NCBI RefSeq assembly: GCF_035938995.1
Contig: NZ_DASZGI010000329.1
Span: forward strand, 54,535 to 118,534
DNA length: 64,000 bases
Source of the DNA: Actinocrinis sp.
Lineage (GTDB): Bacteria; Actinomycetota; Actinomycetes; Streptomycetales; Catenulisporaceae
Direction of reading: 5' to 3'
This document shows, one piece after another, positions 3,012-47,368 of the stretch (its first letter is position 1; each line of letters opens with the position of its first letter). The translations under genes were made by a program, and so were the position numbers. The notes beneath the pieces were generated by a model that had not been told where the DNA came from, searched no databases, and worked only from the letters and a program-made list of their open reading frames with translations.

Positions 3012-3256
3012 GGATACAACCTCCTCGCCCTGCCGTCGCCCGCGGATCGAACCGCGTGAGCATGCGCGAATCGCACCGCGTACCCGAGGGTGGAGCGTTG
3101 ATGCGGCGACGAGCGCTACGGAACAGGCCCCGGTGTTGCCATTTCAGCACCTGGCGGCGGCATTCGCACGCGGGCGGCCGCCGAGCCGACGTTCTCGCAG
3201 GCTTGGCGGCCGCCCGACGTGGTGGGCGAGGTGTAGTTGTAGTTAAACCGGTGCGT

Positions 3257-5021: not shown

Positions 5022-7561
5022 GGCGTGCTCACCAGTTCCTTGTCGTTGCGGTGCGGGGGCCTGCCGATCGCCAGCAGAGGTTTGATCTGTCCGCGCTCGG
5101 CGGTGAACTCGATCGACGCGTCCGGCTCGTCCGGCGCGTTGACGAAGGAGGCGAAGCGGCGCAGCGTCTCCGGATCCTCGATGGCCGCGCGCCACTCGTC
5201 GGCGTAGCCCGCCACGTGGGCGGTCATCAGCTCGTCCAGCTCGGCGCACAGCCCGAGGCTGTCGTCCAGCACGACGTCGCGCACATGCTCGAGCCCGCCC
5301 TCGATGCGCTCGATCCAGGTGGCCGTGCGCTCCAGCCGCTCGGCGGTGCGGATGTAGAACATCAGGAACCTGTCGATCGCCTGGATCAGCTCCGGCTCGC
5401 TCAGGTCCTTGGCGAACAGGTCCGCGTGCCGCGGCCGGAAGCCGCCGTTGCCGCCGACGTACAGGTTCCAGCCGTTCTCGGTGGCGATCACGCCGATGTC
5501 CTTGCCCTGCGCCTCGGCGCATTCGCGGGCGCAGCCGGAGACGGCGGCCTTGATCTTGTGCGGGGCGCGCAGTCCGCGGTAGCGCAGCTCGAGGTCGATG
5601 GCGAGACGGACCGAGTCCTGCACGCCGTACCGGCACCAAGTGGAGCCGACGCAGGACTTGACCGTGCGCACCGCCTTGCCATAGGCGTGTCCTGATTCGA
5701 AGCCCGCGTCCACCAGGCGGCGCCAGATCGCCGGGAGCTGTTCGACGCGGGCGCCGAGCAAGTCGATCCGCTGCCCGCCGGTGAGCTTCGTGTACAGGCC
5801 GAAGTCGCGGGCCACCTCGCCGATGACGATGAGTTTCTCCGGGGTGATCTCTCCGCCGGGGATCCGCGGGACGATCGAGTACGAGCCGTTGCGCTGGATG
5901 TTCGCCAGGAAGTGGTCGTTGGTGTCCTGCAGCGCGGCCTGCTCGCCGGTGAGGATGTGCGTGGGGCCGCCGAGCTTCCCGGCCAGCGAGGCGAAGATCG
6001 AGGCGACGGCCGGCTTGCAGATCTCGCAGCCCTCCTGGCTGACGCCGTGCTCGGCCAGCAGCCGGGCGAAGCTGTCGATCCGGCGCACCGACACGATCTC
6101 GTAGAGCTCCGCGCGGGTCTGCGGGAAGTGCGCGCACAGCGCGGTGGAGGCTTCGACACCGCACGAGGCGAGGAGCTTGCCGAGGAGCGGAACGCAGGAG
6201 CCGCAGCCGGTAGCCGCCTTCGTGCACTGCTTGAGCGCGCCTACGCTGTCGCAGCCTGCTTCGACGATCGCTCGGGTGAGGTCGCCCTTGGAGACGTTGT
6301 GGCAGCTGCAGATCGTGGCCGAATCCGGCAGTGCGCCGATGCCGAGGGCCGGGCCGCCGCCTTCCGCCGCGGGCAGCAGCAGCCGGATCGGCGCGATCGG
6401 CAGCTTGGTGCCGGTTCCGGCCAGCGGCTTGAGTGTGTCGTAGGCGGCGGCGTCGCCGACGAGGATTCCGCCGAGCAGTGCGCCCGCCTCGTCCACGACC
6501 AGCTTCTTGTAGACGCCCTCTGTGTCGTCGGCATAGTGGACGATGACGGCGCCGGGCGCGGCGGCGAAGGCGTCACCGAACGATGCGACGTCCACGCCGA
6601 GCAGCTTGAGCTTGGTGGACAGGTCGGCGCCGGTGAACGGTTTCGGGTCGCGGTCGACGATGTCCCGCGCGGCCGTCTCCGCCATCGCGTAGCCCGGGGC
6701 CACGAGTCCGTAAACCCGCCCGTCGACCGCGAGAGCGCACTCGCCGACCGCGTAGATGCGCGGGTCGGTCGTCCGACAGTGGTCATCGACGCGAATGCCG
6801 CCGCGCTCGCCGACCTCGAGGCCGCTTGCGCGGGCCAGGTCGTCGCACGGCCGCACGCCCGCCGCGAAGACGACCAGGTCGACCCCGAGATCACGCTTCT
6901 CGTCGCCGCAGGCCAGCACCATGCTCGCCGCCGCGCCGTCAGGTCCGGCGCACACGGCGTCGGTGCGGGTCGCGGCGTGCACGGCGACGCCCAGCTCCTC
7001 GATACGCCGCCGCAGCGCCCCGCCGCCGGCCTCGTCGACCTGCAGGGGCATCAGTCGCGGCGCGAACTCCACTACGTGCGTCTCGAGACCGAGCGAGCGC
7101 AGCGCCCCGGCGGCCTCCAGACCGAGCAGCCCGCCGCCGACCACCGCGCCGACGCGGCGCCCCGCCGCGTAACGCTTGATCGCGTCAACGTCCTCGACCG
7201 TGCGGTACACGAAGCAACCGGGCAGGTCGTGGCCGGGCACCGGCGGAACGAACGGGCGCGAGCCGGTGGCCAGGACGAGGAAGTCATAGTCGTATCGCTC
7301 GCCCGAGTCCGTGTGCACCGCCCGGGCCGCCCGGTCGATGCTCACGACCGTCCGGCCGAGCACCACCCGTACGCCCGCAGGCTCGGGATAGGTCAGATCC
7401 TCCGCGCTCGCGCCGTCGAACAACGACGTCAGGTGCACCCGGTCGTACGCCGGACGCGGCTCCTGGGCGAACACGGTGATCTCCGCCTGCGGAGCCAAGC
7501 CGGCGAGCAGCTCCGCGCAGCGGTGCCCGACCATCCCGTAGCCGGCGATCAAGATCCTCAT
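5018..7561 (-). CDS. nirB: NAD(P)H-dependent assimilatory nitrite reductase large subunit
   Basis: Has an N-terminal Rossmann motif (RILIAGYGMVGHR), a BFD-like CSCHNVSKG motif, and sirohaem/4Fe-4S cysteines (SCVGSTWCRYG, VSGCARECAEA). I prefer ATG 7561 (MRILIAGYG) over the ORF-track start at 7657. Confidence 0.9.
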   Translation of the reverse strand: MRILIAGYGMVGHRCAELLAGLAPQAEITVFAQEPRPAYDRVHLTSLFDGASAEDLTYPEPAGVRVVLGRTVVSIDRAARAVHTDSGERYDYDFLVLATGSRPFVPPVPGHDLPGCFVYRTVEDVDAIKRYAAGRRVGAVVGGGLLGLEAAGALRSLGLETHVVEFAPRLMPLQVDEAGGGALRRRIEELGVAVHAATRTDAVCAGPDGAAASMVLACGDEKRDLGVDLVVFAAGVRPCDDLARASGLEVGERGGIRVDDHCRTTDPRIYAVGECALAVDGRVYGLVAPGYAMAETAARDIVDRDPKPFTGADLSTKLKLLGVDVASFGDAFAAAPGAVIVHYADDTEGVYKKLVVDEAGALLGGILVGDAAAYDTLKPLAGTGTKLPIAPIRLLLPAAEGGGPALGIGALPDSATICSCHNVSKGDLTRAIVEAGCDSVGALKQCTKAATGCGSCVPLLGKLLASCGVEASTALCAHFPQTRAELYEIVSVRRIDSFARLLAEHGVSQEGCEICKPAVASIFASLAGKLGGPTHILTGEQAALQDTNDHFLANIQRNGSYSIVPRIPGGEITPEKLIVIGEVARDFGLYTKLTGGQRIDLLGARVEQLPAIWRRLVDAGFESGHAYGKAVRTVKSCVGSTWCRYGVQDSVRLAIDLELRYRGLRAPHKIKAAVSGCARECAEAQGKDIGVIATENGWNLYVGGNGGFRPRHADLFAKDLSEPELIQAIDRFLMFYIRTAERLERTATWIERIEGGLEHVRDVVLDDSLGLCAELDELMTAHVAGYADEWRAAIEDPETLRRFASFVNAPDEPDASIEFTAERGQIKPLLAIGRPPHRNDKELVSTP

Positions 7562-7641
7562 GCGTGCGTTACCGTCCTCGCTGGAAAAGAGTGGGACGAG
7601 AGCACGTTCGGCCATGCCCGTGACGCCGGTGCGTCGCGACT

Positions 7642-7657
7642 GTTTCCCGGTCGGCAC
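7642..7657 (-). promoter_or_regulatory. candidate GlnR-type box (GTGCC-N6-GAAAC on the minus strand) upstream of nirB
   Basis: Plus strand reads GTTTC ccggtc GGCAC. It lies 81-96 nt upstream of the nirB ATG, and a further GTTTC is at 7668-7672. Compared by eye with the published gTnAc-n6-GaAAc consensus. Confidence 0.3.
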
Positions 7658-7709
7658 AGGCTGATCAGTTTCCGCGGATCGCCCAAGTACGACGGTGGCT
7701 TACGGCGGC

Positions 7710-7736
7710 GTTTCCGCCGCGCAACAACCGCGAAAC
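7710..7736. promoter_or_regulatory. symmetric GTTTC-N6-GCAAC-N6-GAAAC element upstream of the nnaR-like gene
   Basis: Read directly from the sequence, 23-49 nt upstream of start 7759. It can be read as a GlnR-like a/b site pair on either strand. Confidence 0.3.
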
Positions 7737-7758
7737 ACAGTTCGCGCAACCTGCCGCC

Positions 7759-8973
7759 ATGTCGAGCGCGCAGCCCACCCCCAGGACCCCGGTGCTCGAG
7801 CCGGGTTTCGGGGATCAGCCGCTGCTGGGCTGCACCGTCGCGGTGACGGCTGACCGGCGGCGCGATGACATGGTCGCGCTGCTGCGTCGGCGCGGGGCCC
7901 GGGTGATCGAGGCGCCGACCCGCAAGCTGGTGCCGTTGGAGGACGACACCGAGGCGCGCGCCGCCACCGCCGAGTGCCTGCGGGCGCCGCTGGACTACGC
8001 CGTGGCCACCACCGGGCGCGGCTGGCGCGGCTGGATCTCCGCGGCCGAGGGCTGGGGCTGGGCGGAGGAGTTGCAGGCGACGCTGGCGCGAGCGACGGTC
8101 GTGTCGCGCGGGCCGAAGGCCACCGGCGCGGTGCGCGCCAGCGGCCTGCGCGAAGACTTCGCCGCCGCCTCCGAGCTGTGCAGCGAGGTGCTCGCATGGC
8201 TGCGCGCCCGGGAGATCGCGCGCAAGCGCATCGCCGTGCAGCAGTACGGCGCCACCGACCCGGCCATCGACTGCGACCTGGCCACCGAGCTGCGCGGTGA
8301 CGGTGCCGAAGTGATCGCCGTGCCGGTATACCGGTGGAATCCGCCGGAGGACCGGACCGCGGTCGGCCGGCTGATCAACACGATCGCCGCGCGCGAGGTG
8401 CACGCCGTCGCCTTCACCTCGGCGCCCGGGGCCGAGGCGCTCCTCGAGGCCGCGGCGGCGGCCGGCGAGGACGTCCTCGACCGAGTGTTGGAGGCGTTTC
8501 GCACCGACGTGATCGCCGCGTGCGTCGGTCCGGTGTGCGCGGGGCCGTTCGAAGCGGTGGACGTGCCGACTGTGCAGCCCGACCGCGCACGCCTCGGCGC
8601 GCTCGTCGCGGAGCTGTGCACGGCGATCCCGGCGCGGGTGCGCAGGAGCATCCCGACGGAGGACGGGCGCACGCTGGTGATCCAAGGCACCGCCGCGCTC
8701 GCCGGAGGGGAGCCGGTGCTGCTGCCGCCGGTGCTGGCCGCGGTGTTCGGGGAACTCGCCAGGCGGCCGGGGCTCGTGGTCTCGCGCAGCGACCTGCTGC
8801 GCCGCGCCTGGGGCACGCGGAACGCGGTGACGACGGCCGGCGGCCGGGACGAGCACGTGGTCGAGGCGACGATCGCGCGGCTGCGTACGGCGCTGGGCTC
8901 CGACGGCGACCTGATCCGCACCGTGACCAAGCGCGGCTACCGCCTCGCCGTCCGGCCGGACGTGGCCCAATGA
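7759..8973 (+). CDS. nnaR: NnaR-type regulator: uroporphyrinogen-III synthase (HemD)-like domain fused to a C-terminal OmpR/PhoB-type winged-helix DNA-binding domain
   Basis: 404 aa. The N-terminal roughly 270 aa are HemD-like. The C-terminus ([15 protein letters not shown] ... [13 protein letters not shown] ... [11 protein letters not shown]) is a trans_reg_C wHTH. It is divergent from nirBD and upstream of the nitrate reductase, as for Streptomyces NnaR. Confidence 0.75.
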
Positions 8974-9055
8974 CCGGCTGGATGGCGAGCGCAGTGACCG
9001 GCGCGCGGCGCGTCGGCCGCCGAACCGCGGCCGCCCTTCCGCTGATTGTCGCCGC

Positions 9056-12000
9056 GTGACCGTGGAGAAGACATCACCCGTGCTCCGCCTTGGGACCGGG
9101 GCCGACCAGACGAGCGCGGCGTGCTCATACTGCGGGGTCGGCTGCGGCGTCGTGCTCGACATCGCCGAAGACGCCCACGGACTCCGCCGCGTCGTCAAGG
9201 TCTCAGGAGACAAGGCCCACCCGGCCAACGCCGGCCGACTGTGCACCAAGGGAGCGACGAGCGCGGAGATGTTGGCCGTTGGCGGCCGGCTCACCGAACC
9301 GCTGATCCGCGCGGAACGCGGCGCGGCGCCCGCGCCGACCTCGATGGACGACGCAGTCGCCGAGAGCGCGCGACGGCTGCGCGCGATCCTGGCCGAGCAC
9401 GGACCGGACGCGCTGGCGTTCTACGTCTCCGGCCAGATGACGCTCGAGGCCCAGTACCTCGCGAACAAGCTGGCCAAGGGCTTCGTGCGGACCAACCAGA
9501 TCGAGTCCAACTCGCGGCTGTGCATGGCCAGCGCGGGCAGCGGATACAAGCTCTCGCTCGGCGCGGACGGCCCGCCGGGTTCCTACGAGGACTTCGATCA
9601 GGCGGAGCTGTTCCTCGTCATCGGCTCGAACATGGCCGACTGCCACCCGATCCTGTTCCTGCGGATGATGGAGCGGGTCAAGGCGGGCGCGAAACTCATC
9701 GTCGTCGACCCGCGGCGCACCGCGACCGCGGCCAAGGCAGACCTCTTCCTCCAGATAAAGCCGGGCACGGATCTCGCCCTCCTCAACGGCCTGCTTCACC
9801 TGCTGGTGGAGCAGGGCGTGATCGACCAGGCGTTCATTGAGGAGCACACAGAAGGCTGGGCGCAGATGCCCGGCTTCCTGGAGGACTATCAGCCCACGAT
9901 GGTCGCCGGGACCACAGGGCTCGATGAGGCCGGCATCAGGCAAGCGGCGCAGTGGATCGCCGACGCGGGCCGGCGCTGGATGAGCTGCTGGACCATGGGC
10001 CTGAACCAGTCCACACACGGCACCTGGAACACCAACACGCTGATCAACCTGCACCTGGCGACCGGCGCGATCTGCCGCCCCGGTGCGGGCCCGTTCTCCC
10101 TGACCGGCCAGCCGAACGCCATGGGCGGACGCGAGATGGGCTACATGGGGCCGGGCCTTCCCGGGCAGCGCTCGGTGCTCGACCCCGAAGACCGCGCCTT
10201 CACCGAAGCGCTCTGGGACCTGCCGCCGGGCACGCTGCGCACGGACGTCGGCCGCGGCACGATCGAGATGTTCGAGCGCATGGCCGCCGGGGAGATCAAG
10301 GCCTGCTGGATCATCTGCACCAACCCCGTCGCCTCCGTCGCCAACCGCAGAACCGTGATCGAAGGGCTCGAAGCCGCCGAGCTGGTGGTGACCCAGGACG
10401 CCTTTGCGGAAACCGAGACCAACGCATACGCCGACATCGCCCTGCCCGCGGCGCTGTGGACCGAGGCCGAGGGCGTCATGGTGAACTCCGAGCGGAACCT
10501 GACCCTGAATCGGCAGGCGGTCGATCCGCCCGGCGAGGCCCGCCCCGACTGGCGGATCATCGCCGACATCGCCTGCGCGATGGGCTTCGCCGAGGCGTTC
10601 ACGTACGAGAGCGCTACGGAGGTTTTCGAGGAGCTCAAGCGGGCCTGGAACCCGAAAACCGGCTGGGACCTGCGCGGCGTCACCTACCAGCGACTATGCC
10701 GTACCCCGGTGCAGTGGCCCGCCGCACGCGAGGACGGCCCGGCGCGCAATCCCGTGCGGTATCTGAACGACGGCGTCAGCCAGAAGCTGCTGGAACGACC
10801 GGACGGGACCCGGCCGCGCCTGGCGTTCCCGACCTTGAGCGGCCGCGCCGTCTTCCACGCGCGCCCGCACCTGCCCGCCGCCGAACTGCCGGACGACGAC
10901 CACCCGTTCGTGCTCAACACCGGCCGGCTGCCGCACCAGTGGCACACGATGACGAAGACCGGCAAGATCGACAAGCTCACGAAGCTCAATCCCGGCCCGT
11001 TCGTGGAGATCCACCCGCAGGACGCGCAGCGGCTCGGGATCGCCGAGGGTGACCAGATCGAGGTGGCCTCGCGCCGCGGCCGGGCGGTGCTGCCCGCGCG
11101 CATCACGGATCGGGTGCGGCCGGGGGACTGCTTCGCCCCGTTCCATTGGAACGACCTGTTCGGAGAGTACTTGAGCGTGAACGCGGTGACGAACGACGCC
11201 GTCGACCCCGTCTCGTTCCAACCGGAGTTCAAGCACTGCGCCGTCACGCTGACCAAGGTCCCGGCCCCTGCGGAGGCACAACCCGTCCCGCAGGGCGGGC
11301 AACCGCGGCCGGTCCCGGCGTCGGCGTTCGATCTCGCCTCTCACCTCGGCCTTTCCACGCCGGCCCCGCCGGACTTCAACCCGATCGAGCAGCGCTACCT
11401 GACCGGCTTCCTCGCCGGGCTCGCCGCGGCACCGGATGCCTCCTGCGTACCGACGCTGCCGGCGAACGCGCCGCTCCATCCCGACAACGCGCTATGGGTC
11501 AACGGCCTGCTCGCTGGGGTCTACTCGCGTACGCGCATCGCCGTCGACGCACCTGCGCAGGCTCCCGCGACCGACGGTGCGCAGCCGATGCGCACGATCG
11601 CCGTCCTCTGGGCCTCCCAGACCGGGAACGCCGAGGCGATTGCACAGAAGACCTCCAGCACTCTGACCGACCGCGGTTTCCGCGTCTCGCTGACCAGCAT
11701 GGAACGCATCACTCTGGCAGACATCCGCCAACTGACCGACGTACTCGTCGTCACGAGCACGTACGGGGACGGAGACGCCCCGGACAACGGCAGCGAGTTC
11801 TGGCACGCCCTCGCGGCCGAGAACGCGCCGCGTCTGGAGAGCCTGCGCTATGCCGTGCTGGCCCTCGGCGACTCCGGCTACGCCGAGTTCTGCGGCCATG
11901 GCCGACGCCTGGACCAGCGGCTTTTCGAGCTCGGCGCCGAACGCCTGACCGCGCGGGTGGACTGCGAACCCGACTACGAGCCGACCGCCACGCAGTGGCT

Positions 12001-35959: not shown

Positions 35960-36703
35960 CTACGCGTCTCCGGCGAGGATGCGCTCCTGAAGATCGCGTA
36001 GCTCAGGCCCCGGCTCGATGCCCAGCTGGCCGACCAGCACCTGGCGCGCGTCGTGATAGGCCGCCAACGCCTCGGCCCGGCGGCCGGTGCCGGCCAGAGC
36101 CAGCATCAGCTGGGCGTGGAAGCGTTCGCGCAGGGGGTGCTCGCCGACGAGGGCGCGGAGTTCCGGGACCAGCTGGTCGTGGCGCTGCATCTGCAGGTTG
36201 GCCTCGATGAGCCATTCGAGTACTTGTATCCGCTCTTGTTCGAGACGTGGAATCCATGCGTCCCGCAGTCCTTCGCTGCGCACGTCCACCAGCGGCGTGC
36301 CGCGCCATAGGGCCAGCGCCTCGGATGCGGTTCTCGCGGCGTCCGGCCAGGCTTGGTTGCGGATCGCGGCGCCGCAGTTGTGGCGCAGCGCCTGGAACTC
36401 GAGCACGTCGAGCTCCGATGACGCGATCTTGATCAAGTAGCCCGGATCACGCACGGTGATGCGGGTCCCGGCATCGGGCTCCAGCGTGCGGCGCAGGCGC
36501 AGCACGTGGCCGCGAAGCGTCGTCGGCGCACCCGGTGGGGGTGCGCCGTCCCATACCGCGTCGGCCAACGCGTCGAGCGAGACCGGTTCGTTGGCGCGCA
36601 GCAGGAGCGCGGCCAGCAACGCTCGAAGACGCGCGCCGCCGACGGCCACCTGTTTGCCCGCGTCGCGCACGAAAACCAGCGGACCCAAAAGTGCAAACCG
36701 CAT
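35960..36703 (-). CDS. small SARP-family transcriptional activator (OmpR-type wHTH + BTAD domain)
   Basis: 247 aa. Begins MRFALLGPL...VGGARLRALLAALLL and has BTAD helices (EALALWRG, LIEANLQMQRHDQLVPEL, AYHDARQVLVGQLGIEPGPELRDL). Confidence 0.85.
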   Translation of the reverse strand: MRFALLGPLVFVRDAGKQVAVGGARLRALLAALLLRANEPVSLDALADAVWDGAPPPGAPTTLRGHVLRLRRTLEPDAGTRITVRDPGYLIKIASSELDVLEFQALRHNCGAAIRNQAWPDAARTASEALALWRGTPLVDVRSEGLRDAWIPRLEQERIQVLEWLIEANLQMQRHDQLVPELRALVGEHPLRERFHAQLMLALAGTGRRAEALAAYHDARQVLVGQLGIEPGPELRDLQERILAGDA

Positions 36704-36921: not shown

Positions 36922-37527
36922 ATGAAGCTGGGCCGTATCGCGGCGCCGATGGCCGCACTGGTCACCGCCGCCGCCGGGTCTCTCGCCGTCATCCCCGCCG
37001 CTTCCGCCGACAGCGTCTCGGCAGCGCAGCCCACCGCGCAGCACGCGGTCGCGCATGTCGGAAACCTGACCGCGCCCGCGGTCACTCCGGCCGTCAAGGC
37101 CAAGCTCGCCGCCGGCAGGAGCATCTGTTACGCCGCGCACGTGCAGAACATCGGCTGGCAGAGCTGGGTGTGTGACGGCCAGATCGCCGGCACCACCGGT
37201 CAGAGCCTGCGCATGGAGGCGCTCGCCATCATCACCTCCGGCACCGGCGGCATCTGCGCACAAGCGCACGTGCAGAACATCGGCTGGATGGGCGTGGACT
37301 GCGAGCCCGACGGTTCCGAAGCCCTCGTCGGCACCACCGGTGAGAGCCTGCGCATGGAGGCGCTGTTCCTGGCGCCCAACACGTCCCCGGGTTCGATCTG
37401 CGCGGACGCGCACGTGCAGAACATCGGCTGGCAGGGAGTGGTCTGCAACGACGGCGCCTGGGGCGGGCTCGAAGTCGGCACCACCGGTCAGAGCCTGCGT
37501 ATGGAAGCCATCACCATCACCGTCTGA
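36922..37527 (+). CDS. secreted ChW-repeat protein (three clostridial-hydrophobic-W repeats)
   Basis: Signal peptide MKLGRIAAPMAALVTAAAGSLAVIPAASA. Three copies of AHVQNIGWx...GTTGxSLRMEA. Confidence 0.75.
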   Translation: MKLGRIAAPMAALVTAAAGSLAVIPAASADSVSAAQPTAQHAVAHVGNLTAPAVTPAVKAKLAAGRSICYAAHVQNIGWQSWVCDGQIAGTTGQSLRMEALAIITSGTGGICAQAHVQNIGWMGVDCEPDGSEALVGTTGESLRMEALFLAPNTSPGSICADAHVQNIGWQGVVCNDGAWGGLEVGTTGQSLRMEAITITV

Positions 37528-37917: not shown

Positions 37918-40719
37918 ATGATCGACGACAACGGGGGATTCGGGGTCCGGTTGCGCGCGTTGCGCTTGGCGGCCGGGATCTCGCAGCAGGAACTCGCGGA
38001 GCGCTCGGGGCTGAGCATCCGCGCCATCAGCAATCTGGAACGGGGACGCACACGCTGGCCGTACCGCCATTCGCTCAAGCGACTGGCGGATTCGCTCGGC
38101 CTCGCCGGTGCGGAACGGGAGGCGTTCATCGCCGCCGGCCGCCGGCCTGTCGCCGTGGCTGACACACCGGGCGACGACCCTCCCCCTGACGCTGGTGCTG
38201 ACGCGATCGAGCAGCCACAACAGAGTTCGAACCCGCCGCTGCGGATGCGGCCCGTCGTGCCTTGCCACCTGCCCGCACCCGTGCCCGGCTTTGTCGGCCG
38301 CGAGGACACGATGGCGGAGCTCACACACCTCCTGCCGCCGCGGGGCTCGGTGCCAGTCGCGGCGATCAGCGGCACCGCGGGCGTGGGTAAGACGGCGCTG
38401 GCCGTGCGCTGGGCGTGGCAGTCAGCCGAGTCGTTTCCGGACGGTCAGCTGTATGTGAACCTGCGCGGATACGACTCCGGCCCGCCGCGGTCCGCGAGCG
38501 ATGCGCTGGCTTGGCTGCTTCGCGCGCTCGGCATGGACGCGAACCGCATCCCGGCCGACGAGGACGAGCGCGCCGCCGTGTATCGCAGCACCCTGGCTTC
38601 CCGCCGGGTTCTCCTGCTGCTCGACAACGCGCGCGACGCCGCACAGGTTCGCCCCCTGCTTCCCGGAACGCCGGGCAGCGCAGTCCTGGTCACCAGCCGG
38701 GACGCCCTCGCCGGGCTCATCGCCCGGGACGGCGCGGAGCGGATCGAGCTCGAGCTGCTGCCGGAAGACGACGCCCAGAACCTCCTGCACAACCTGATCG
38801 GCACACGCGCGCAGGCGGAACCGGTCGCGATCAGCGCTCTCATCTCGCAGTGCTGCCAGCTTCCGCTCGCGTTGCGCGTCGCGGCCGAACTCGCCGCCTC
38901 GCGTCCGGGCGCCGTGCTCGGCGAGCTGGTCGCCGAACTGGCCGATCTGCGCGGCCGCCTCGACGTCCTGTCGGCGGGCGGCGACTCGGGCACTGCGGTG
39001 CGTGCGGTGTTGTCCTGGTCGTATCAGCAGCTGACGCCCGCGGACCGGCGTGCCCTGCGTCTGTTGTCGCTGCACCCGGGAGCCGACTTCGAGCTCTACG
39101 CCGCGGCCGCGCTCACCGGCGCGGATCTGCAGACGGCACACCGGACGCTCGAACGTCTGGCTCGGGCCTACCTCGTCCACCCCCATGGTCCGAAGCGCTT
39201 CGAGTTGCACGACCTGCTGCGTGGATTCGCGCGCGAGCTGACCGAGACGGAGGACGAACCGGGCGTCAGGCGGGGAGCTCTGGCCGCCCTGTTCGAGTAC
39301 TACCTGCACACCTCCTCGGCGGCCATGAACGTGCTGTTCCCCGCCGAGGCGGGGCGCCGCCCCCGGCTTGGCGCCCCGCCGGCACGCGTCACACCGATCG
39401 AGGGCATTGATGCGGCCCGCGGATGGCTCGACGCGGAGCGGGCGAATCTGACCGCGCTCGTCGCGTTCGGCGCCCAAGGAGAGTCCGGGACGAGCGGGTC
39501 CGCGCAGTACCCTCCGAACGCGGACCGCTATCTCGCCGCGCGCGCCATCGAACTGGCATCTACGGTCGATCGCTACCTCATCTTCGGGCAGCACAGGGCC
39601 GAGGCGAACTCCGTGCATATGAGCGCTCTGAAGGCAGCCCGACGCGAGGGCGACCGACGGGCCGAGGCTATGGCGCTCACGCACCTCGGCTACATCGAGA
39701 GGACCCTCGGCAGATACGGCTCATCGGTCGCGTATCAGCAGCAGGCTCTGGCGATCTTCACAGAGCTCGACGACAAGGTGGGCAAGGCGCGCGTGCTGCA
39801 CCGGCTGTCGCTGGTCGAGCGGCTCACGGGCAAACTCGACGCGGCGCAAGCACACGCACTGGAGGTGATCGACCTCTGCCGACAGGTCGGCGAGCGGCTC
39901 GGCGAGGCACGCGCGTCGCATGCGCTCGGTGCGGTGAACATAGAGCGCGGCCGCTATTCGCAAGCCGCCGGATACCTGCACCGCACGCTCGAACTCCTGG
40001 ACGCGGCGAAGGACCGCTCAAGCCGCTCGGTGACCGTGAAAGAGCTCGGAGTCATCGAACTGCGCTACGGTCGCCTCGATGCCGCCGCCGAGCTGTTCGC
40101 GCAGGCACAGGCGCTGTGTCGGGAGGCGGCGAACGTCAGCGGCGAGGCGGAGGTCATCTCCCAGCAGGGACTGACGGAGACGCTGGCGGGCAGGCCAGAG
40201 GAAGGCGCTGTCCTGTACAAGCGCGCGGTCTCCATGAATCGCGAAGTCGAGGACTTGGACGGGGAAGGATGGGCGCTGGCCCGCGCAGTACAGACAGAGC
40301 TCAGCGTCGGCCGGGCGCAGAGCGCGGCGGACCTGGCCGAGCAGGCGCTTCAGATCACGAACATCCTCGGTGCGGACTCGCTACGGGCATACGCCCTCAA
40401 CATGCTGGGCGTGGCTCTCACCGTCGGCGGTCATCCCGACCGCGCCCCCGCGCGTCACCTCGCCGCACTCGATCTCGCCGAGTCGATGGGCGCCGAGCAC
40501 GAGCGGGCGAACGCGCACCACGGCCTCGCGCAAGCACACGCAGCGCTCGGTCACGACCAAACGGCCCTCGACCACGCCCGCGCCGCGTACGCCTGGTACG
40601 CGCAGGCCGGAGTGCCGGAAGCCGCGCAGATCTGGGCCCGATTCCCCGCACTCGCACGGCCTGATCCGGCAGGGCGGCGACCCGGCGGCGAAGGCACGTG
40701 CCGCATGGCATTGGCCTGA
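37918..40719 (+). CDS. STAND-type regulator: XRE-family HTH + NB-ARC ATPase + TPR repeats
   Basis: ATG 37918. HTH LRALRLAAGISQQELAERSGLSIRAISNLERG, Walker A GTAGVGKTALA, Walker B VLLLLDNA, and a C-terminal 450 or so aa of TPR-like repeats. Confidence 0.8.
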   Translation: MIDDNGGFGVRLRALRLAAGISQQELAERSGLSIRAISNLERGRTRWPYRHSLKRLADSLGLAGAEREAFIAAGRRPVAVADTPGDDPPPDAGADAIEQPQQSSNPPLRMRPVVPCHLPAPVPGFVGREDTMAELTHLLPPRGSVPVAAISGTAGVGKTALAVRWAWQSAESFPDGQLYVNLRGYDSGPPRSASDALAWLLRALGMDANRIPADEDERAAVYRSTLASRRVLLLLDNARDAAQVRPLLPGTPGSAVLVTSRDALAGLIARDGAERIELELLPEDDAQNLLHNLIGTRAQAEPVAISALISQCCQLPLALRVAAELAASRPGAVLGELVAELADLRGRLDVLSAGGDSGTAVRAVLSWSYQQLTPADRRALRLLSLHPGADFELYAAAALTGADLQTAHRTLERLARAYLVHPHGPKRFELHDLLRGFARELTETEDEPGVRRGALAALFEYYLHTSSAAMNVLFPAEAGRRPRLGAPPARVTPIEGIDAARGWLDAERANLTALVAFGAQGESGTSGSAQYPPNADRYLAARAIELASTVDRYLIFGQHRAEANSVHMSALKAARREGDRRAEAMALTHLGYIERTLGRYGSSVAYQQQALAIFTELDDKVGKARVLHRLSLVERLTGKLDAAQAHALEVIDLCRQVGERLGEARASHALGAVNIERGRYSQAAGYLHRTLELLDAAKDRSSRSVTVKELGVIELRYGRLDAAAELFAQAQALCREAANVSGEAEVISQQGLTETLAGRPEEGAVLYKRAVSMNREVEDLDGEGWALARAVQTELSVGRAQSAADLAEQALQITNILGADSLRAYALNMLGVALTVGGHPDRAPARHLAALDLAESMGAEHERANAHHGLAQAHAALGHDQTALDHARAAYAWYAQAGVPEAAQIWARFPALARPDPAGRRPGGEGTCRMALA

Positions 40720-40759
40720 GTTGCGGCCGCAGCTACGGCCTCGGCTGCGAAAACGCTGA

Positions 40760-40793
40760 GGGGCGAGTCCTCCCCTCCGGGTGGACTCGCCCC
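40760..40793. terminator. hairpin between convergent STAND and secreted-protein genes
   Basis: GGGGCGAGTCC - 12-nt loop - GGACTCGCCCC, an 11-bp stem. Confidence 0.5.
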
Positions 40794-40842
40794 ACTCCTC
40801 TTTCCGCATGGCCGGGTCGGCGAGGCACAGGAACGTGCATGC

Positions 40843-41850
40843 CTACCAGTCAGAGGCGGGAGCGGCGACTGTCTGAGCCGTCCCCATGAAGAACCTCGAG
40901 CAGTTGCCGTAGTGGCTGGCGTCCCACGGCGAGGCGCAGATCGCCTGCGCGGTGGTGGACGGGGAGTCCGACGCCCTCAGGTCACTGACGACCCCCGGGT
41001 AGAGGCCGTTGTTGAGCGTGTCGACGACGTACTGCGCCGCCGCGAACAGGTTCGGGCAGGTCCCCAGCACCCCACCGCACCCGTATCCGTTGTTCAGCGG
41101 GTTGTTGTCGTGGAACCAGTCGGTGGGCGGTTCCTCGGAGGTGGTCCACTCGGTGAGGACCTTGACGTTGTTGGCGCTGACCGGCCAGCCGCCGTCGTGC
41201 AGGACCCACGTCGCCCAGTCGTAGTTCGTGGCCTCGTACAGGCCGAAGTCCCACGTCGGGCAGCCGGAGGCGGTGTCGAGGTTCAGCGTGATGGTCCCGC
41301 CGTTCGACGCGGCACCCGACATACACGAGGCGTCGGCGCCGTGCTGGTCCTGGTTGCTCCAGTACAGGTTGATCAGGTAACCGCCGTGGTCGACGAAGAT
41401 CGTGCCGTTGGATCCCCCGTTACCGCTCGACGTGTTGTTGCACGTGCCGAGCACCGGGTTAGCGCTTGAATCCGTGGCGACACACTTGCCGTTGGGCAGA
41501 TAGACGAGCTGGACGATCGGGAAGCCCGCATAGCGCGCGTCGAACGTCGTGTTCGCGAAGGGACACGTGCTGGTCACCTTCCCGCCGCAGCGCCCGTCGA
41601 CGGGCTGTGCCACGAAGGTCTCGTTGCCGACGCCGCCCTGGTACATCTTCACGGCCTGATTGCTGCCGTTCCAGTCGTTGAGGCAGTAGCCGCCGTTCGA
41701 CGTCTGACAGAACTGCGCCACCAGAGGTCCTCCGGCGGCGAGGGCCGGCGCGGCGCCGAGGCCCAGGACCACCGCGAGCGCACCGATGATCGCCGCAATG
41801 CCCGCGAAGGCGGGTCTGGCCCGGCGCAGCCGATACCGGATGGCTTTCAT
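40843..41850 (-). CDS. secreted protein: Cys-rich N-terminal module (paralogous to 42359..43402) + unassigned C-terminal domain
   Basis: 335 aa. ATG 41850 is preceded by GGGAGAG. Signal peptide ...GLGAAPALAAGG. The N-module FCQTSNGGYCLNDWNGSNQAVKMYQGGVGNE... is shared with the neighbouring gene. Confidence 0.65.
   Translation of the reverse strand: MKAIRYRLRRARPAFAGIAAIIGALAVVLGLGAAPALAAGGPLVAQFCQTSNGGYCLNDWNGSNQAVKMYQGGVGNETFVAQPVDGRCGGKVTSTCPFANTTFDARYAGFPIVQLVYLPNGKCVATDSSANPVLGTCNNTSSGNGGSNGTIFVDHGGYLINLYWSNQDQHGADASCMSGAASNGGTITLNLDTASGCPTWDFGLYEATNYDWATWVLHDGGWPVSANNVKVLTEWTTSEEPPTDWFHDNNPLNNGYGCGGVLGTCPNLFAAAQYVVDTLNNGLYPGVVSDLRASDSPSTTAQAICASPWDASHYGNCSRFFMGTAQTVAAPASDW
41236..41724 (-). 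repeat. inverted gene-segment duplication, copy A (Cys-rich module)
   Basis: Encodes the roughly 160-aa module that is also encoded at 42488..42958 on the opposite strand. Long runs are near-identical at the DNA level (for example CTCAACGACTGGAACGGCAGCAA(T/C)CAGGCCGTGAAGATGTACCAGGG). Confidence 0.75.
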
Positions 41851-42135
41851 ATCTCTCCCTCATTCCGCACAGTGCATTCGTGGTCTGACGCGCTGTGACC
41901 GGAGGGATGTTCTCATCGTGCGCCCGCGCGAGGACAGGAAGAGTCACCGGCACTCTTCCCGGCACACCTTCCTTCCCTGCTCAGGCAGGTGAAACCAGCT
42001 ACACCAGCGTATATCGGCATGGAGAGAATGCCGGTCGGAGTTCCTGTCCCGGCGCGACACAGGCTCCGTACTCTCTGCCCTGCGCGACCCGCGAAGACGT
42101 CGCGGGCGCTCGATCTCGAGCGGAGGTGTGCGCAT

Positions 42136-42294
42136 GTGGTTTACAAACACAGGCTCGTCGCGCTGACGGCGGTGGTCGGCCTGGCCTGCGCTGTCGGTGT
42201 GTCGGCCGGGAGCACGCCGCACTCGCTGGCCAGCAGCAGATCTGCAGCACGGCATGGGGCATGGACCGGAGATGTCCCGCCGGCTGGCTCGTGA
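42136..42294 (+). CDS. candidate small secreted peptide (52 aa)
   Basis: GTG 42136 has GGAGG 9 nt upstream. VVYKHRLVALTAVVGLACAVGVSAGSTPHSLA looks like a Sec signal and would leave a mature part of about 20 aa. No homolog was recognised. Confidence 0.25.
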   Translation: MVYKHRLVALTAVVGLACAVGVSAGSTPHSLASSRSAARHGAWTGDVPPAGS

Positions 42295-42358
42295 CCAGTA
42301 GTGAATCGCCGAATGTCAGCAACCGAGCTCAGTCATGTCTAGAGGAGGAGAACGAGAA

Positions 42359-43402
42359 GTGTCAGCAGTCCTGCAGCGCTTGCGCCGGGTCCGTCCCGTC
42401 ACGGCGATTCTGCTTGTGGCGGGCGGGCTCAGCATAGGAGTCGCTGCTGCCCCGGCGAACGCCGCAAGCTCCCTCGGTACGGCGAACTTCTGCCAGACCT
42501 CCAGCGGCAACTTCTGCCTCAACGACTGGAACGGCAGCAACCAGGCCGTGAAGATGTACCAGGGTGGCGTCGGCAACGAGGACTTCGTGGCGGAGAACGT
42601 ACCCGGGCGCTGCGGCGGCGGGAAGGTCACCAGCAACTGCCCCTTCGCCAACACGACCTTCGATTCGCGCTATGAGGGCTACCCGATCGTCCAGCTCGTC
42701 TACGAACCCGACGGCCGGTGCCTCGGCACGCAATCGGCCACGAACTCGAGCGCGTACCTCGGCGGGTGCAACAGCACCTCGAGCGGGGATGGCGGAGCCG
42801 ACGGCACGATCTTCGTCGACCACGACGGATACCTGATCAACCTGTTCTGGACCAACAAGGGCCAGTTCGGCGACAACGCCGCGTGTATGTCAGGCGGCGC
42901 GTCGAACGGCGGGGCCATCACCCTCGACCTCGAGACGGCATCAGGCTGCCCCCGATGGGCCATCGGCGCGTCGTCGGTCGTCTCCTACGCTCAGGCCATT
43001 GAGAACGGCGATCCCGAGGTCGGCTGGCGGGGCGGCGACGTGCCGTACATCTGGGGCGGCGGCCACGAGTCGACCCCCGGCCCGTCGGTCACCGACTCCA
43101 ACGGCGCGCCTGGCGTGGGGCTCGACTGCTCCGGCTTCTCCCGCTGGGTCTACGCCCTGGCCTACGGCAGCGACGTCCTCGGCTCCGGCAGCACCGTCAA
43201 TCAGGACGAGGAGATGACGCGGGTCAGTTCACCGGTCCCCGGCAACCTCGTCTTCTTCGGTGGCAGCCTGAGCACCTCCGTCCACGTCGGCGTTTACATC
43301 GGCAACAACCAGATGATCGACGAGCCTGCCCCCGGCGACGTCGTCCGGACCGACACCATCTCAAGCGCCTTCGGCAACATCCTCGGGTACTTCAAGCTCT
43401 AG
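42359..43402 (+). CDS. secreted protein: Cys-rich N-terminal module + C-terminal NlpC/P60 cysteine peptidase
   Basis: GTG 42359 is preceded by AGAGGAGGAG. Signal peptide ends AAPANA. The C-terminus has NlpC/P60 hallmarks (GLDCSGFSRWVY, HVGVYIG). Confidence 0.8.
   Translation: MSAVLQRLRRVRPVTAILLVAGGLSIGVAAAPANAASSLGTANFCQTSSGNFCLNDWNGSNQAVKMYQGGVGNEDFVAENVPGRCGGGKVTSNCPFANTTFDSRYEGYPIVQLVYEPDGRCLGTQSATNSSAYLGGCNSTSSGDGGADGTIFVDHDGYLINLFWTNKGQFGDNAACMSGGASNGGAITLDLETASGCPRWAIGASSVVSYAQAIENGDPEVGWRGGDVPYIWGGGHESTPGPSVTDSNGAPGVGLDCSGFSRWVYALAYGSDVLGSGSTVNQDEEMTRVSSPVPGNLVFFGGSLSTSVHVGVYIGNNQMIDEPAPGDVVRTDTISSAFGNILGYFKL
42488..42958 (+). repeat. inverted gene-segment duplication, copy B (Cys-rich module)
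   Basis: Partner of 41236..41724. All eight cysteines are conserved between the copies. Confidence 0.75.
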
Positions 43403-43439: not shown

Positions 43440-43476
43440 GCGGGGCGGCGGATGGGCGAACCATCCGCCGCCCCGC
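43440..43476. terminator. strong bidirectional hairpin between the NlpC/P60 gene and vapC
   Basis: 16-bp perfect GC-rich stem GCGGGGCGGCGGATGG / CCATCCGCCGCCCCGC with a 5-nt loop. Confidence 0.7.
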
Positions 43477-43521: not shown

Positions 43522-43965
43522 TCAAGCCTCATCGCTCACAGTGCTGACATACGGCCCATCGCCGACGCGGCGTTCGTCGAGTTCCGCGATCACCCGGCCG
43601 ACAGCCTCGAAGTCGCGGTCGTCGTGGAGAACGATCAGTCCTCGGTCTACAGCCGTGGCCGCTACGAGCAGGTCCACCACGCCCGCTCCGCGATGCTGGC
43701 TGAGCGCCGTCAGCCGTTCCTGGGCCGCGTCGATCCACGGCCACGGGTCCTTGCTGACCGGAGCGGGGGTGAACGCGGCGTCCAGCAGTTCTCGCATCTG
43801 GCGGCGTTCGGCTGGGCTGCGTGCGCTGCGCAGTACCTCAACGCGAGTGGCCTCGCACAGGCACACCGTGCCTTCGGTGATCTCTTGTCCCCATGCGGCC
43901 CAGGACTCGGGTTCTCGGCGAAAGCGCCAGTAGGCGCTCGCGTCGAGCAGGTAAGTCCCGATCAT
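43522..43965 (-). CDS. vapC: type II toxin, PIN-domain ribonuclease
   Basis: 147 aa. Begins MIGTYLLDASAY (first acidic residue) and has later D/E residues (DLLVAATAV, LHDDRDF). Overlaps the antitoxin stop by 4 nt. Confidence 0.85.
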   Translation of the reverse strand: MIGTYLLDASAYWRFRREPESWAAWGQEITEGTVCLCEATRVEVLRSARSPAERRQMRELLDAAFTPAPVSKDPWPWIDAAQERLTALSQHRGAGVVDLLVAATAVDRGLIVLHDDRDFEAVGRVIAELDERRVGDGPYVSTVSDEA

Positions 43966-44198
43966 GCGTCGGTGTCGTGCCCACTCCGCGGGGCGGGGTC
44001 CTTGCGTTCGAGCCAGGTCCGGTAGCCGGACTCCGCGTCGCCGAGCTGCATGAGCCGTTCAAAGGCGCGCAGGCGGGTGCGCCGCTCGGCGACCTCGCGC
44101 AGCGCCTGGTTGACGGTGTCCTTCTTGGTGGTGGTGCCCAGTTCGGCCATCGCCCCGGCGAGGGCCTCGTCGTCGAGGTCGATCGGTGTCACCGTCAT
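43962..44198 (-). CDS. vapB: type II antitoxin (VapB-type)
   Basis: 78 aa. MTVTPIDLDDEALAGAMAELGTTTKKDTVNQALREV is typical of the small VapB family encoded upstream of PIN toxins. Confidence 0.8.
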   Translation of the reverse strand: MTVTPIDLDDEALAGAMAELGTTTKKDTVNQALREVAERRTRLRAFERLMQLGDAESGYRTWLERKDPAPRSGHDTDA

Positions 44199-45046: not shown

Positions 45047-47368
45047 TTAGTTGGCCACCCAGGTCGCGATCTGCGTTCTGGTGCGGAAACCGAGCTTGTT
45101 CAGGATGCTGCGAACGTGGCTGTCGACGGTGCGCTCGGAGATGAACAGGCGCGTGGCGATCTGCTTGTTGGTGAGCCCTTCGGCGATCAGCCGCGCGACC
45201 TCGGCTTCGCGCTTACCCAGCGGGCTCACATCGGCGTCGCCACCGCCACCGCCACCGGCTTCGCTTTGGTCGCCCTGACCGGCCCTGGCTTCGTCCGGGG
45301 ATTCGCCGAGCGCGAGGCGGATCGCCGCGTCCCGCTGGAGGTTCTTCCCGGCTTCGAACTCTGTCTTGAAGCGCGCTTCACCGAGCATCGCAGCCGCCGC
45401 CTGCTCGGCCTGGGCGAACTGCGTGGAAAGGATCGGCATGACGTTCGCGCCGGCTTCGACTCGCACCGTCTCCGCGGCGCCGAACATGGCTGCCGCCCAC
45501 AGCGCGTTGCCGGAGAGAGTGGCGTGGCAGGCGTGCGCGGCCAGCAGGTAGAACTGCGCGACCCGGTCGTCAATGCGGTGCGCGGTCGCCAACGCTTCGG
45601 CGAGCAGCGGCTCCGCCTCGGCGAGCTCCCCGGCCATCAACGCGGCGGAGCCGAGGTTCAGCAGCATGATCTCGAGCGTGTAGAAGTCGCCGATCTCCCT
45701 GGACAGGCGCACACCCTCGGTCGCGCCCGCCCTGATCGTGGCGAGATCGGCCTCGAAGAACGCGTTGAACACCCGGGCCTGCAGGACCGCGAGCCTGCCG
45801 TGCACGTAGTCGATGCCTGCGACCGCCTTCTGGGCCTCGGCGAGCAGACGCGCGGCGGCCGGGCCGTCGCCGGCGATGGCCTCGGCGACCGACGCCATCG
45901 ACAGCGCATCGCAGAGCAGGTCCTGCTGGCCGTTGCGCCGTGCCGCCGCCGCCGCTGCCTCGAGCTCCGGTTTGGCGACCGCCGGTTCCGCCTTCAGCAC
46001 GGCCAGGAAACCGCGGATGAAGGTGGCCCAGGCACGTAGCTGCGGATCGCCGCCCTCCATCGCGAGGAACCCGCCGAGCCACCGCATGCCCTCGGTCGTC
46101 GCACGGGTGATCCAGAACCAACTCAGGGACAGGGCAAGCTCGATGCCGCGGGAGGTGTCCCCCTGTGTCAGGCATCGACTGAGCACGGCCCGGATGTTGT
46201 CGATCTCGAGGTCCGCCCAGGGAAGCCACTCGAGAAGGCGGACGCGCACCGCCTGTCCGGGCTCGACCTTCGACCGGAAGTACTCCGTGCAGGCGAGCTC
46301 GACTGAATCCCGCTCGCCAGCCTCGTCGATCTTGAGTCGTGCGTACTCGCGCATCGTCTCGTGCAGGCGATAGCACGGCAGGCCATGGGCTTCCTCGCGG
46401 ACCACCAAGGACTTGTCAATGAGCGACGACATCAGGTCCAGCGCCTGCGCGGGCGGTGTGCCCTCAGGCATGCAGACCGCTTCCGCGTCGTCCAGCGTGA
46501 ATCTGCCCGCGAACACGCATGCCCGTCGCAGGACCGCGCGCTCGCCGTCGGTCAGCAGGTCGTGGCTCCACTCGATCGTGGTCCGCAGGGTCTGGTGGCG
46601 CGGCAGGGCGGCGCGGCTGCCTCCTGTCAGCAGGCTGAAACGGTCGGACAGGCGGTCGAGGATCTGCTCGGCCGCGAGGACCCTCGTCCGGACCGCGGCG
46701 AGCTCGATCGCCAAGGGCAGCCCGTCAAGCCGTCGGCACAGCTCTACCACCGTCGCCCGGTTGGCCGCCATCAGCTCGAACACCCCGGACGCCGCCTCAG
46801 CCCGCTCGACGAAGAGAGCCACCGCCTCGTTCTGCCGCAGCCGGACCAGGGACTCCGTCGGGTCCGGCGAAGGCAGCTCGAGAGGCGTCACGGGGACGAT
46901 GTGCTCGCCCGCGGCGGCGAGCGGCTCCCGGCTGGTGGCGATCACCCGCACGTCCGGTGCGGCTTTCAGCACATCGGTGACGACCCGCGCGGCTGTTTCG
47001 AGCAAGTGCTCGCAGTTGTCCACGACCAGGAGCAGTTCCTTCTCCCGCAGGTAAGACAGGATCAGCGCTAGAGGCTCGGTCGAGGCCTGGTCGCGCAGAC
47101 CCAAGGCCGCCATGACCGCGCTGCCGACGAGCGCCGGGTCCTGCAGGTCCGCGAGTTCGACCAGCCAGGCGCCGTCGCGGAACCCGCGTCCGAGATCGGC
47201 GGCGGCGCGCACCGCCAGCCGGGTCTTGCCGACGCCGCCCGGCCCGACCAGACTGATCAGCCGCGCCTGCGTGAGTTTCTTCCTGATCTCCGCGAGTTCG
47301 CGGCGGCGGCCGACGAAGCTGGTCGTCTCGGCCGGAAGGCTGCCAGTGCGCCGGGTGGGCCTCGCCAT
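45047..47368 (-). CDS. LAL-type regulator: AAA/STAND ATPase + TPR-like region + C-terminal LuxR HTH
   Basis: 773 aa. Walker A GPGGVGKTRLA, Walker B LLLVVDNCEH, and a C-terminal LuxR HTH (REAEVARLIAEGLTNKQIATRLFISERTVDSHV). Confidence 0.85.
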   Translation of the reverse strand: MARPTRRTGSLPAETTSFVGRRRELAEIRKKLTQARLISLVGPGGVGKTRLAVRAAADLGRGFRDGAWLVELADLQDPALVGSAVMAALGLRDQASTEPLALILSYLREKELLLVVDNCEHLLETAARVVTDVLKAAPDVRVIATSREPLAAAGEHIVPVTPLELPSPDPTESLVRLRQNEAVALFVERAEAASGVFELMAANRATVVELCRRLDGLPLAIELAAVRTRVLAAEQILDRLSDRFSLLTGGSRAALPRHQTLRTTIEWSHDLLTDGERAVLRRACVFAGRFTLDDAEAVCMPEGTPPAQALDLMSSLIDKSLVVREEAHGLPCYRLHETMREYARLKIDEAGERDSVELACTEYFRSKVEPGQAVRVRLLEWLPWADLEIDNIRAVLSRCLTQGDTSRGIELALSLSWFWITRATTEGMRWLGGFLAMEGGDPQLRAWATFIRGFLAVLKAEPAVAKPELEAAAAAARRNGQQDLLCDALSMASVAEAIAGDGPAAARLLAEAQKAVAGIDYVHGRLAVLQARVFNAFFEADLATIRAGATEGVRLSREIGDFYTLEIMLLNLGSAALMAGELAEAEPLLAEALATAHRIDDRVAQFYLLAAHACHATLSGNALWAAAMFGAAETVRVEAGANVMPILSTQFAQAEQAAAAMLGEARFKTEFEAGKNLQRDAAIRLALGESPDEARAGQGDQSEAGGGGGGDADVSPLGKREAEVARLIAEGLTNKQIATRLFISERTVDSHVRSILNKLGFRTRTQIATWVAN

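Follow-up and report, generated by a model that had tools for sequence, protein, structure and literature searches.

A divergent Actinocrinis gene pair with a shared eight-cysteine module, predicted to be secreted and to act at the cell wall

Why would two neighboring genes, transcribed away from each other, encode proteins that begin with the same cysteine-rich module and end in unrelated domains? The question is raised by a stretch of 64,000 nucleotides from Actinocrinis sp. (contig NZ_DASZGI010000329.1; the whole stretch is called the window in what follows). In this window, gene A (40843..41850, minus strand) encodes a protein of 335 aa with a predicted signal peptide, an eight-cysteine module and a helical C-terminal domain, the C-domain, and gene B (42335..43402, plus strand) encodes a predicted signal peptide, a second copy of the module and an NlpC/P60 peptidase. 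We favor, with moderate confidence, the view that both products are secreted enzymes acting on peptidoglycan, that they are brought to the same site of the wall by the shared module, a lectin-like β-trefoil, and that A is a second cleaving enzyme working beside the peptidase.

The gene pair and its fused counterpart

Coding bias is strong in both reading frames, with a GC content at third codon positions (GC3) of 0.91 in A and 0.88 in B against 0.54 and 0.53 at second positions (GC2), in a window whose overall GC content is 67-73%. The product of gene A matches "hypothetical protein VGZ32_23705 [Actinocrinis sp.]" (protein P0157) at 100% identity, Actinocrinis being a genus of the family Actinospicaceae, order Catenulisporales, and the locus is present with identical gene order on 12 metagenomic contigs from several samples, on which gene A is also called. 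Translation of B probably starts at GTG 42359 (347 aa) or TTG 42380 (340 aa) rather than at ATG 42335 (355 aa), because the gene callers, which give 347 or 340 aa on 12 independent contigs, and the lengths of orthologues (347 aa for P0010) agree on these sites. Both proteins are predicted to leave the cell by the Sec route, since their leaders, judged by eye, have a basic RLRRxRP n-region and a hydrophobic core of ~20 residues that ends in ALA followed by AG in A and in ANA followed by AS in B. The signal peptide of A, as read from the translation, covers aa 1-38 (41737..41850, minus strand), and its n-region reads RLRRARP.

The module spans aa ~44-200 of A (41251..41721, minus strand) and aa ~50-208 of B in the numbering from ATG 42335 (42482..42958, plus strand). 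An earlier interpretation made from the letters and translations of this DNA, which we call the sequence-only reading, had described two open reading frames whose modules could be aligned residue by residue, at least two-thirds identical and with all eight cysteines kept, and this description holds in every part: BLASTP aligns 216 aa of the two proteins at 61% identity (E = 4e-86), identity rises to 71-73% between the mature modules, and each of the eight cysteines has its counterpart (48/56/88/96/123/137/176/197 in A and 53/61/93/102/129/145/184/205 in B). The same reading had also pointed to near-identical runs of DNA in inverted orientation. Inverted likeness is indeed present, as three collinear arms of 138, 137 and 210 nt, but "near-identical" was too strong a term for arms that are 86%, 79% and 82% identical. 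Identity between the two genes is lowest at third codon positions (0.77, compared with 0.82 and 0.84 at the first and second), from which it follows that both copies have been under purifying selection and that neither a recent duplication nor an assembly artefact lies behind the pair. The two paralogues are old and have been kept by selection. Recent gene conversion between them was considered and found no support, in that the two modules of a related pair in another lineage (locus L002) are 57% identical to each other, less than the 66% between the B-type module of that pair and that of B in the window; no sign of recent exchange between neighboring module copies was found in the module comparisons, which covered the window and L002.

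The strongest evidence that A and B would act on peptidoglycan, and that the module they share would be a wall-directed binding module, comes from the sequence of a third protein. P0245, a 512-aa protein from a JGI metagenome, consists of three PG_binding_1 repeats (3.8e-46), an NlpC/P60 domain and a C-domain, in that order. Its NlpC/P60 domain is 58% identical to that of B (E = 9e-53), and its C-domain is 63% identical to that of A (E = 2e-50), so that the two effector domains, which are distributed over two genes in the window, are found here in a single polypeptide. The N terminus of P0245 holds PG_binding_1 repeats instead of the trefoil, which places the trefoil of A and B in the position of a wall-binding domain.

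Relatives of both genes occur elsewhere, the A-type orthologues in six clusters at 90% identity (P0011, P0157-P0160 and P0171) and the B-type relatives in proteins that include P0010, P0013 and P0017. In L002, the gene directly after an A-type gene, and on its strand, is of the B type, with a product that shares 58% identity with the whole of B. The pairing of A and B is thus conserved in a second lineage and the divergent orientation is not, which answers the concern, voiced in the sequence-only reading, that the pair might prove not to be conserved. In another locus (L001), an A-type gene has an HTH-STAND regulator gene on either side, and one of the two encodes a product 34% identical to the STAND regulator beside gene A in the window (E = 9e-27); next to this orthologue, the HTH-STAND type of regulator recurs and the SARP type, also represented near the pair in the window, does not. 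The A-type gene of L001 is adjoined by a gene (2491-3033, plus strand) for a secreted, true ricin-type lectin of 180 aa, with QxW motifs and a match to PF14200 (E = 2.5e-6). This lectin is unrelated in sequence to the eight-cysteine module, so two different trefoil lectins would stand in one small locus.

Peptidase, helical domain and shared module

The catalytic domain of B (43040..43366, plus strand; aa 236-344) matches PF00877 with E = 3.7e-16 and 59.5 bits against a cut-off of 23, and its catalytic motifs are intact, with Cys265 in DCSG, His317 in HVGVY and Asp329/Glu330 in MIDE; the third catalytic residue is assigned by motif only, Glu330 being conserved in 5/5 of the B-type relatives read. 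The nearest models are those of RipA/RipB-type wall endopeptidases in NCBIfam, as partial matches, and of phage tail lysins in PHROGs. B is most likely a papain-like NlpC/P60 peptidase that cuts peptide stems as a D,L-endopeptidase. That B is an NlpC/P60 protein, and that A ends in an unrelated stretch of ~130 aa, had been recognized from the translations; the PF00877 match confirms the former, and both BLASTP and Pfam set the C terminus of A apart. In its layout, B resembles the NlpC/P60 hydrolases equipped with LysM, SH3b or PG_binding_1 domains, such as mycobacterial RipA/RipB and Listeria p60, in having the peptidase behind a non-catalytic N-terminal domain and, as predicted, a signal peptide. 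It differs from them in that its N-terminal domain is a predicted disulfide-rich β-trefoil of an unannotated family rather than a LysM, SH3b or PG_binding domain, and in that this domain is duplicated onto a second, non-peptidase protein encoded by the adjacent gene.

Searched as a single sequence and as a profile, the module has no sequence match in Pfam (2025 copy), NCBIfam (2026), PHROGs or the PDB, which bears out the earlier statement that it could not be assigned to a named family. When Pfam was scanned member by member, matches to RicinB_lectin_2 (PF14200) were marginal, being found in 3/141 members with a best E of 0.17. A word-indexed search of 5.8 billion clusters returned four relatives, and an exhaustive search of 1.84 billion representatives returned 400 proteins that match the module profile, 248 of them at E ≤ 1e-10. 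The family amounts to ~400 clusters at 50% identity, its members being almost all metagenomic. Full-length members, of which there are 114, usually consist of a leader of ~30 aa and the module of ~160 aa, after which the protein ends; eight cysteines are present in 94 of them, and a C-terminal domain follows the module in six only, namely the two genes of the window and four relatives. Fusion of the module to enzymes is confined to one small clade. The sequence-only reading had pictured a binding module swapped between effector domains, and the first half of this picture, one binding module on two effectors, is supported by the trefoil fold, the slot in P0245 and the pair in L002, while the swapping goes no further than this clade. 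Fusion partners of the kind it had proposed to look for do exist (NlpC/P60 and the helical C-domain), but in a family in which 108/114 full-length members are standalone secreted proteins of ~200 aa.

Structure prediction, which had also been suggested, gives the module a β-trefoil fold, by AlphaFold2 (AF2) and Foldseek together. An alignment of 6 module sequences gave AF2 a pLDDT (predicted local distance difference test) of 31; with 142 rows of natural sequences, aligned over both domains of mature A, the model reached a pLDDT of 89.5 and a pTM (predicted template-modeling score) of 0.72. In this model the module of A has a pLDDT of 87-98 and, as assigned by DSSP, 12 strands arranged 4+4+4; strands 4 and 5 are separated by a Cys-rich insertion of 27 residues, in which there are two short helices. 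Of the 50 PDB matches that Foldseek listed, those that are well aligned are β-trefoils throughout. They include FGF-1 (TM-score to the target, TMt, 0.62, probability 1.00), actinohivin (0.68, 1.00) and the designed trefoil Symfoil (0.63), and, further, CdtA, botulinum HA33, Tpp80, the N-terminal domains of RyR/IP3R and the carbohydrate-binding module (CBM) of a Streptomyces lacto-N-biosidase; the trefoil matches in BFVD are ricin-B lectins of giant viruses and baculovirus FGFs. The matches to FGF-1, actinohivin and Symfoil reach probabilities of 0.99-1.00, but at an identity of 8-13% and E values of ~1e-3 to 2e-2. In terms of this model, what is new about the module is its disulfide-rich sequence family; its fold is well known, and it is no new kind of domain. 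The possibility that it would turn out to be a well-known domain, raised by the sequence-only reading, is thereby answered in two ways, the predicted fold being the familiar β-trefoil and the sequence family being new and unannotated.

Ricin-type lectins and CBM13 domains are commonly attached to secreted actinomycete enzymes. With such proteins, of which actinohivin and the binding domains of Streptomyces glycosidases are examples, the module shares the predicted fold and its 12 strands (TMt 0.62-0.68), but it lacks their sequence likeness, their QxW motifs and their internal repeat, and it has eight cysteines and the 27-residue insertion. The module is found both in loci of 65-72% GC and in a metagenome-assembled genome (MAG) of Saccharimonadales of 35% GC; the scan of genome contigs used one narrow peptide pattern and returned 2 loci, a result with little bearing on how widely the module is distributed. 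In the Saccharimonadales MAG (locus L005), a protein of 777 aa (8045-10378, minus strand) with repeated PA14-like units, RHS/YD repeats and a C-terminal extension is encoded ~2.5 kb from the standalone module gene, in a different operon, and looks like a polymorphic toxin.

The C-domain of A (40846..41244, minus strand; aa 203-335) consists of six helices in the AF2 model, with an Asn/Gly-rich loop of 28 residues after helix 2, and has additional cysteines at positions 258/265/305/317. Across a divergence of ~45%, Asp211 and Glu239 (D9 and E37 of the domain), six Trp/Tyr residues, the NNPLNNG loop and an SPW..HY motif are invariant. Glu239 is the final residue of helix 2 (model residues 187-200), with the invariant Asn/Gly-rich loop next to it, and the end of a helix is the usual place of the catalytic Glu in enzymes of the lysozyme superfamily. 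The best structural match in BFVD fits the C-domain over 122 columns at 29% identity, with a root-mean-square deviation of 3.6 Å and E = 2e-4, and is an uncharacterized Caudovirales protein of 627 aa. A match to a "FlgJ muramidase" in the same database is marginal (probability 0.35), and phrog_30434, of unannotated function, weakly matches 14/31 members of the family, which makes it the one match to come out of the sequence searches with the module and the C-domain in Pfam, NCBIfam, PHROGs and the PDB.

A first search with the C-domain found five relatives, mostly from Agromyces. A two-domain profile, built purely for searching by joining diverse modules to known C-domains, retrieved 192 proteins, and the C-domain family comprises more than 190 clusters at 90% identity. 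More than 100 of the 192 are proteins of 180-270 aa from Agromyces or other Microbacteriaceae, all annotated as "hypothetical", in which an N-terminal membrane anchor or leader is followed by a linker and the C-domain. In Agromyces protaetiae (CP035491.1; locus L003), the standalone C-domain gene (6001-6729) has a ClpS/DUF2017 cluster on one side and the hspR-dnaJ-grpE-dnaK operon on the other. This housekeeping-like presence in Microbacteriaceae, once near a dnaK operon, is an argument that the C-domain family has a general function at the wall. The C-domain gene of A. protaetiae is adjoined by two unannotated genes, of 383 and 424 aa. As for phages, three tblastn queries with the C-domain found nothing in 50,697 phage records, and IMG/VR contains one contig (111 kb; locus L004) with a standalone, membrane-anchored copy. 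The three open reading frames that flank this copy in L004, at 7255-7788, 8614-9009 and 10324-11994, look, from their translations only, like macro-domain, HNH endonuclease and TROVE/vWA (Ro-like) genes.

The proposed action at the wall and its rivals

Taken together, these features can be arranged into a sequence of events at the wall. Both proteins would be exported, and the trefoil would be oxidized to contain about four disulfides, with two more disulfides likely in the C-domain of A. The trefoil would then dock A and B on a cell-wall ligand, playing the role that the PG_binding_1 repeats play in P0245. Once in place, B would cleave peptide stems, and A would probably complement it with a cut of its own, most plausibly in the glycan strand, as a lysozyme-like or lytic-transglycosylase-like enzyme with Glu239 as the catalytic acid and Asp211 nearby. 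The ligand of the trefoil, the chemistry of the C-domain and export by the Sec route are the parts of this scheme that we infer, and the wall in question may be the cell's own, in which case the enzymes would serve remodeling, or that of another bacterium, in which case they would serve antagonism. The sporadic, mostly metagenomic distribution of the module family and the toxin-antitoxin and STAND genes in the neighborhood argue for an accessory or antagonistic role. As a combination, A and B would resemble the mycobacterial RipA-RpfB pairs and the bifunctional phage tail lysins and endolysins in which a lysozyme or transglycosylase domain is paired with CHAP or NlpC/P60, for here, too, a peptidase is accompanied by a second small domain, either in an adjacent gene (the window and L002) or in the same protein (P0245). 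The likeness to phage lysins extends to the nearest structural relatives of the C-domain, which are large Caudovirales proteins in BFVD. Unlike the second enzymes of those systems, the C-domain has no recognizable Rpf, SLT, lysozyme or glucosaminidase domain, by sequence or among the folds listed.

Several observations weigh against this scheme. On the side of A, the C-domain has no Pfam match even at E ≤ 10 and no meaningful sequence match in the PDB, no lysozyme-like or hydrolase fold appears among the 50 PDB matches listed for the two-domain model, and no lysis cassette is evident around the C-domain gene of L004, whose surroundings look like an accessory region instead; the idea of a glycan cleaver is drawn from the P0245 fusion and the placement of the conserved residues only. 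On the side of the trefoil, the sequence does not place the module in the ricin-type families, as neither A nor B matches PF00652 or PF14200 in Pfam and QxW repeats are absent. With the true ricin lectin of L001, hhalign gave no significant relationship (probability 0.3%), and an hhalign comparison of the module profile with itself found no internal three-fold repeat. The β-trefoil fold also includes protease inhibitors and cytokines, and so it is no proof of sugar binding. Standalone modules have no conserved neighbors in the four loci compared, and a module that mostly stands alone clearly has a function of its own, which is not necessarily targeting.

A could also be explained as a protein that catalyzes nothing. 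The C-domain would then be a second wall-binding or protein-interaction domain, and A itself, as a two-headed adhesin or scaffold, would serve to recruit or regulate B. We regard this as rather unlikely, and it is nonetheless the alternative that survives best. It would suit a domain that resembles no known hydrolase by sequence or among the PDB fold matches listed, that is small (~130 aa) and all-helical, as several wall-binding domains are, and that is membrane-anchored in the standalone copies of Microbacteriaceae. P0245, however, already has three binding repeats, so that a fourth binder would be less economical there than a second activity, and the invariant Asp211 and Glu239, together with a strict Asn/Gly loop kept across ~45% divergence, look like an active site.

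A more far-reaching possibility is that the C-domain is the first of a structurally new family of enzymes that cleave peptidoglycan, housekeeping in Microbacteriaceae, carried by some phages and secreted here, and the eight-cysteine trefoil forms a new family of lectins for a glycan of the Actinomycetota envelope. Such a lectin would explain why the module occurs in both Actinomycetota and Saccharimonadales, the latter having cultured relatives that are attached to actinobacterial hosts in life. We consider this full combination unlikely.

A different role for the trefoil follows from the company it keeps within its fold. Inhibitors of papain-like peptidases, of the Kunitz-STI/mycocypin type, are among the β-trefoils. 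NlpC/P60 is a papain-like peptidase (PMC10318531), and the module of B, being N-terminal like a pro-domain, could keep the enzyme inactive until it is removed; the many standalone secreted members would then be protease inhibitors, a layout that suits such proteins well. We hold this inhibitory or latency function to be very unlikely. In A the module is joined to a helical domain that is no peptidase, the equivalent slot of P0245 holds peptidoglycan-binding repeats, and no inhibitor is found among the PDB matches listed, where the best alignments (TMt 0.5-0.7) are to lectins, to FGF and to a designed trefoil.

The fungal chimerolectins MOA and PSL1a (PF18021, PF18022) carry a papain-like cysteine peptidase behind a β-trefoil lectin (PMC10318531). 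B has its trefoil and its papain-like peptidase in the same order; the fungal proteins differ in being cytoplasmic, in belonging to another peptidase family and in having eukaryotic targets, whereas B has a bacterial NlpC/P60 wall-enzyme domain and a predicted signal peptide. Least credible is the idea that A and B are lectin-guided toxins against eukaryotes (fungi, amoebae or nematodes), in the manner of the MOA chimerolectins or of the trefoil subunits of AB toxins, for which the domain order of PF18021/PF18022 proteins (PMC10318531), the toxin components CdtA, HA33 and Tpp80 among the fold matches, and a sporadic, largely metagenomic family with a locus amid toxin-antitoxin and STAND genes could be cited, but against which stand the match of the B domain to bacterial wall endopeptidases and phage tail lysins and the close relative in P0245 that is joined to three peptidoglycan-binding repeats.

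If the enzymatic reading of both proteins is adopted, their layout of a binding module and a wall hydrolase follows a well-established design, and what is new are the two families, module and C-domain, that are absent from Pfam, NCBIfam and the PDB. A search of the literature found no description of a trefoil joined to NlpC/P60 or of a trefoil family in Saccharibacteria, the papain-superfamily survey (PMC10318531) being the only relevant paper retrieved; we found neither family described in the searchable literature, the coverage of which is incomplete and gives no proof of absence. The gain therefore lies in annotation and not in concept, in that two unannotated domain families receive a first testable assignment and both enzyme partners are linked to peptidoglycan through P0245. 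Should the C-domain cleave the wall, it would represent a new family of peptidoglycan hydrolases, of use for enzybiotics and for the annotation of phage lysins and autolysins. If the trefoil does bind a wall polymer, it would provide a new targeting domain for engineered lysins and possibly a clue to how Saccharibacteria recognize their hosts.

Surroundings of the pair

The divergent genes A and B are separated by an intergenic region of ~500 bp (41851..42358) that presumably holds both promoters. A cyclic-di-AMP riboswitch precedes many actinomycete wall-hydrolase genes; in this region no Rfam family was found at E ≤ 1, the cyclic-di-AMP (ydaO) riboswitch included. Scans for sigma-70-type and terminator consensus sequences were empty, the sigma-70 scan being uninformative in an actinomycete of 68% GC, and a weak inverted repeat of 32 nt lies at 41925-42056. 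At the other end of gene A, a GC-rich inverted repeat of 26 nt with a 4-nt loop (40749..40804), located between the stop codons of A and of the STAND regulator, is likely a terminator stem. Its counterpart beyond B, between the stop codons of B and of a convergent vapC, is a hairpin (43440..43476) with a perfect, GC-only stem of 16 bp (GCGGGGCGGCGGATGG, 5 nt, CCATCCGCCGCCCCGC), which is probably a bidirectional terminator without a T-run; the matches of this stem to a microRNA model of Rfam, on both strands, are below threshold and spurious.

Three signal-transduction regulators lie within 12 kb around the pair: a SARP regulator (BTAD + Trans_reg_C; 35960-36703, minus strand), the STAND regulator of 933 aa that is convergent with gene A (HTH_XRE + NB-ARC + TPR by Pfam, and a called gene; 37918..40719, plus strand) and an NB-ARC/nSTAND + LuxR regulator (45047-47368, minus strand). 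Between the first two, a gene at 36922-37527 (plus strand) encodes a small, probably extracellular protein of 201 aa in which the ChW (clostridial hydrophobic W) repeat occurs three times (PF07538, E = 1.7e-39); the gene is among those called on the source contigs. Directly downstream of B and convergent with it is a VapB-VapC pair with a PIN domain (43522-44198, minus strand), which is present in 4/4 of the source contigs listed.

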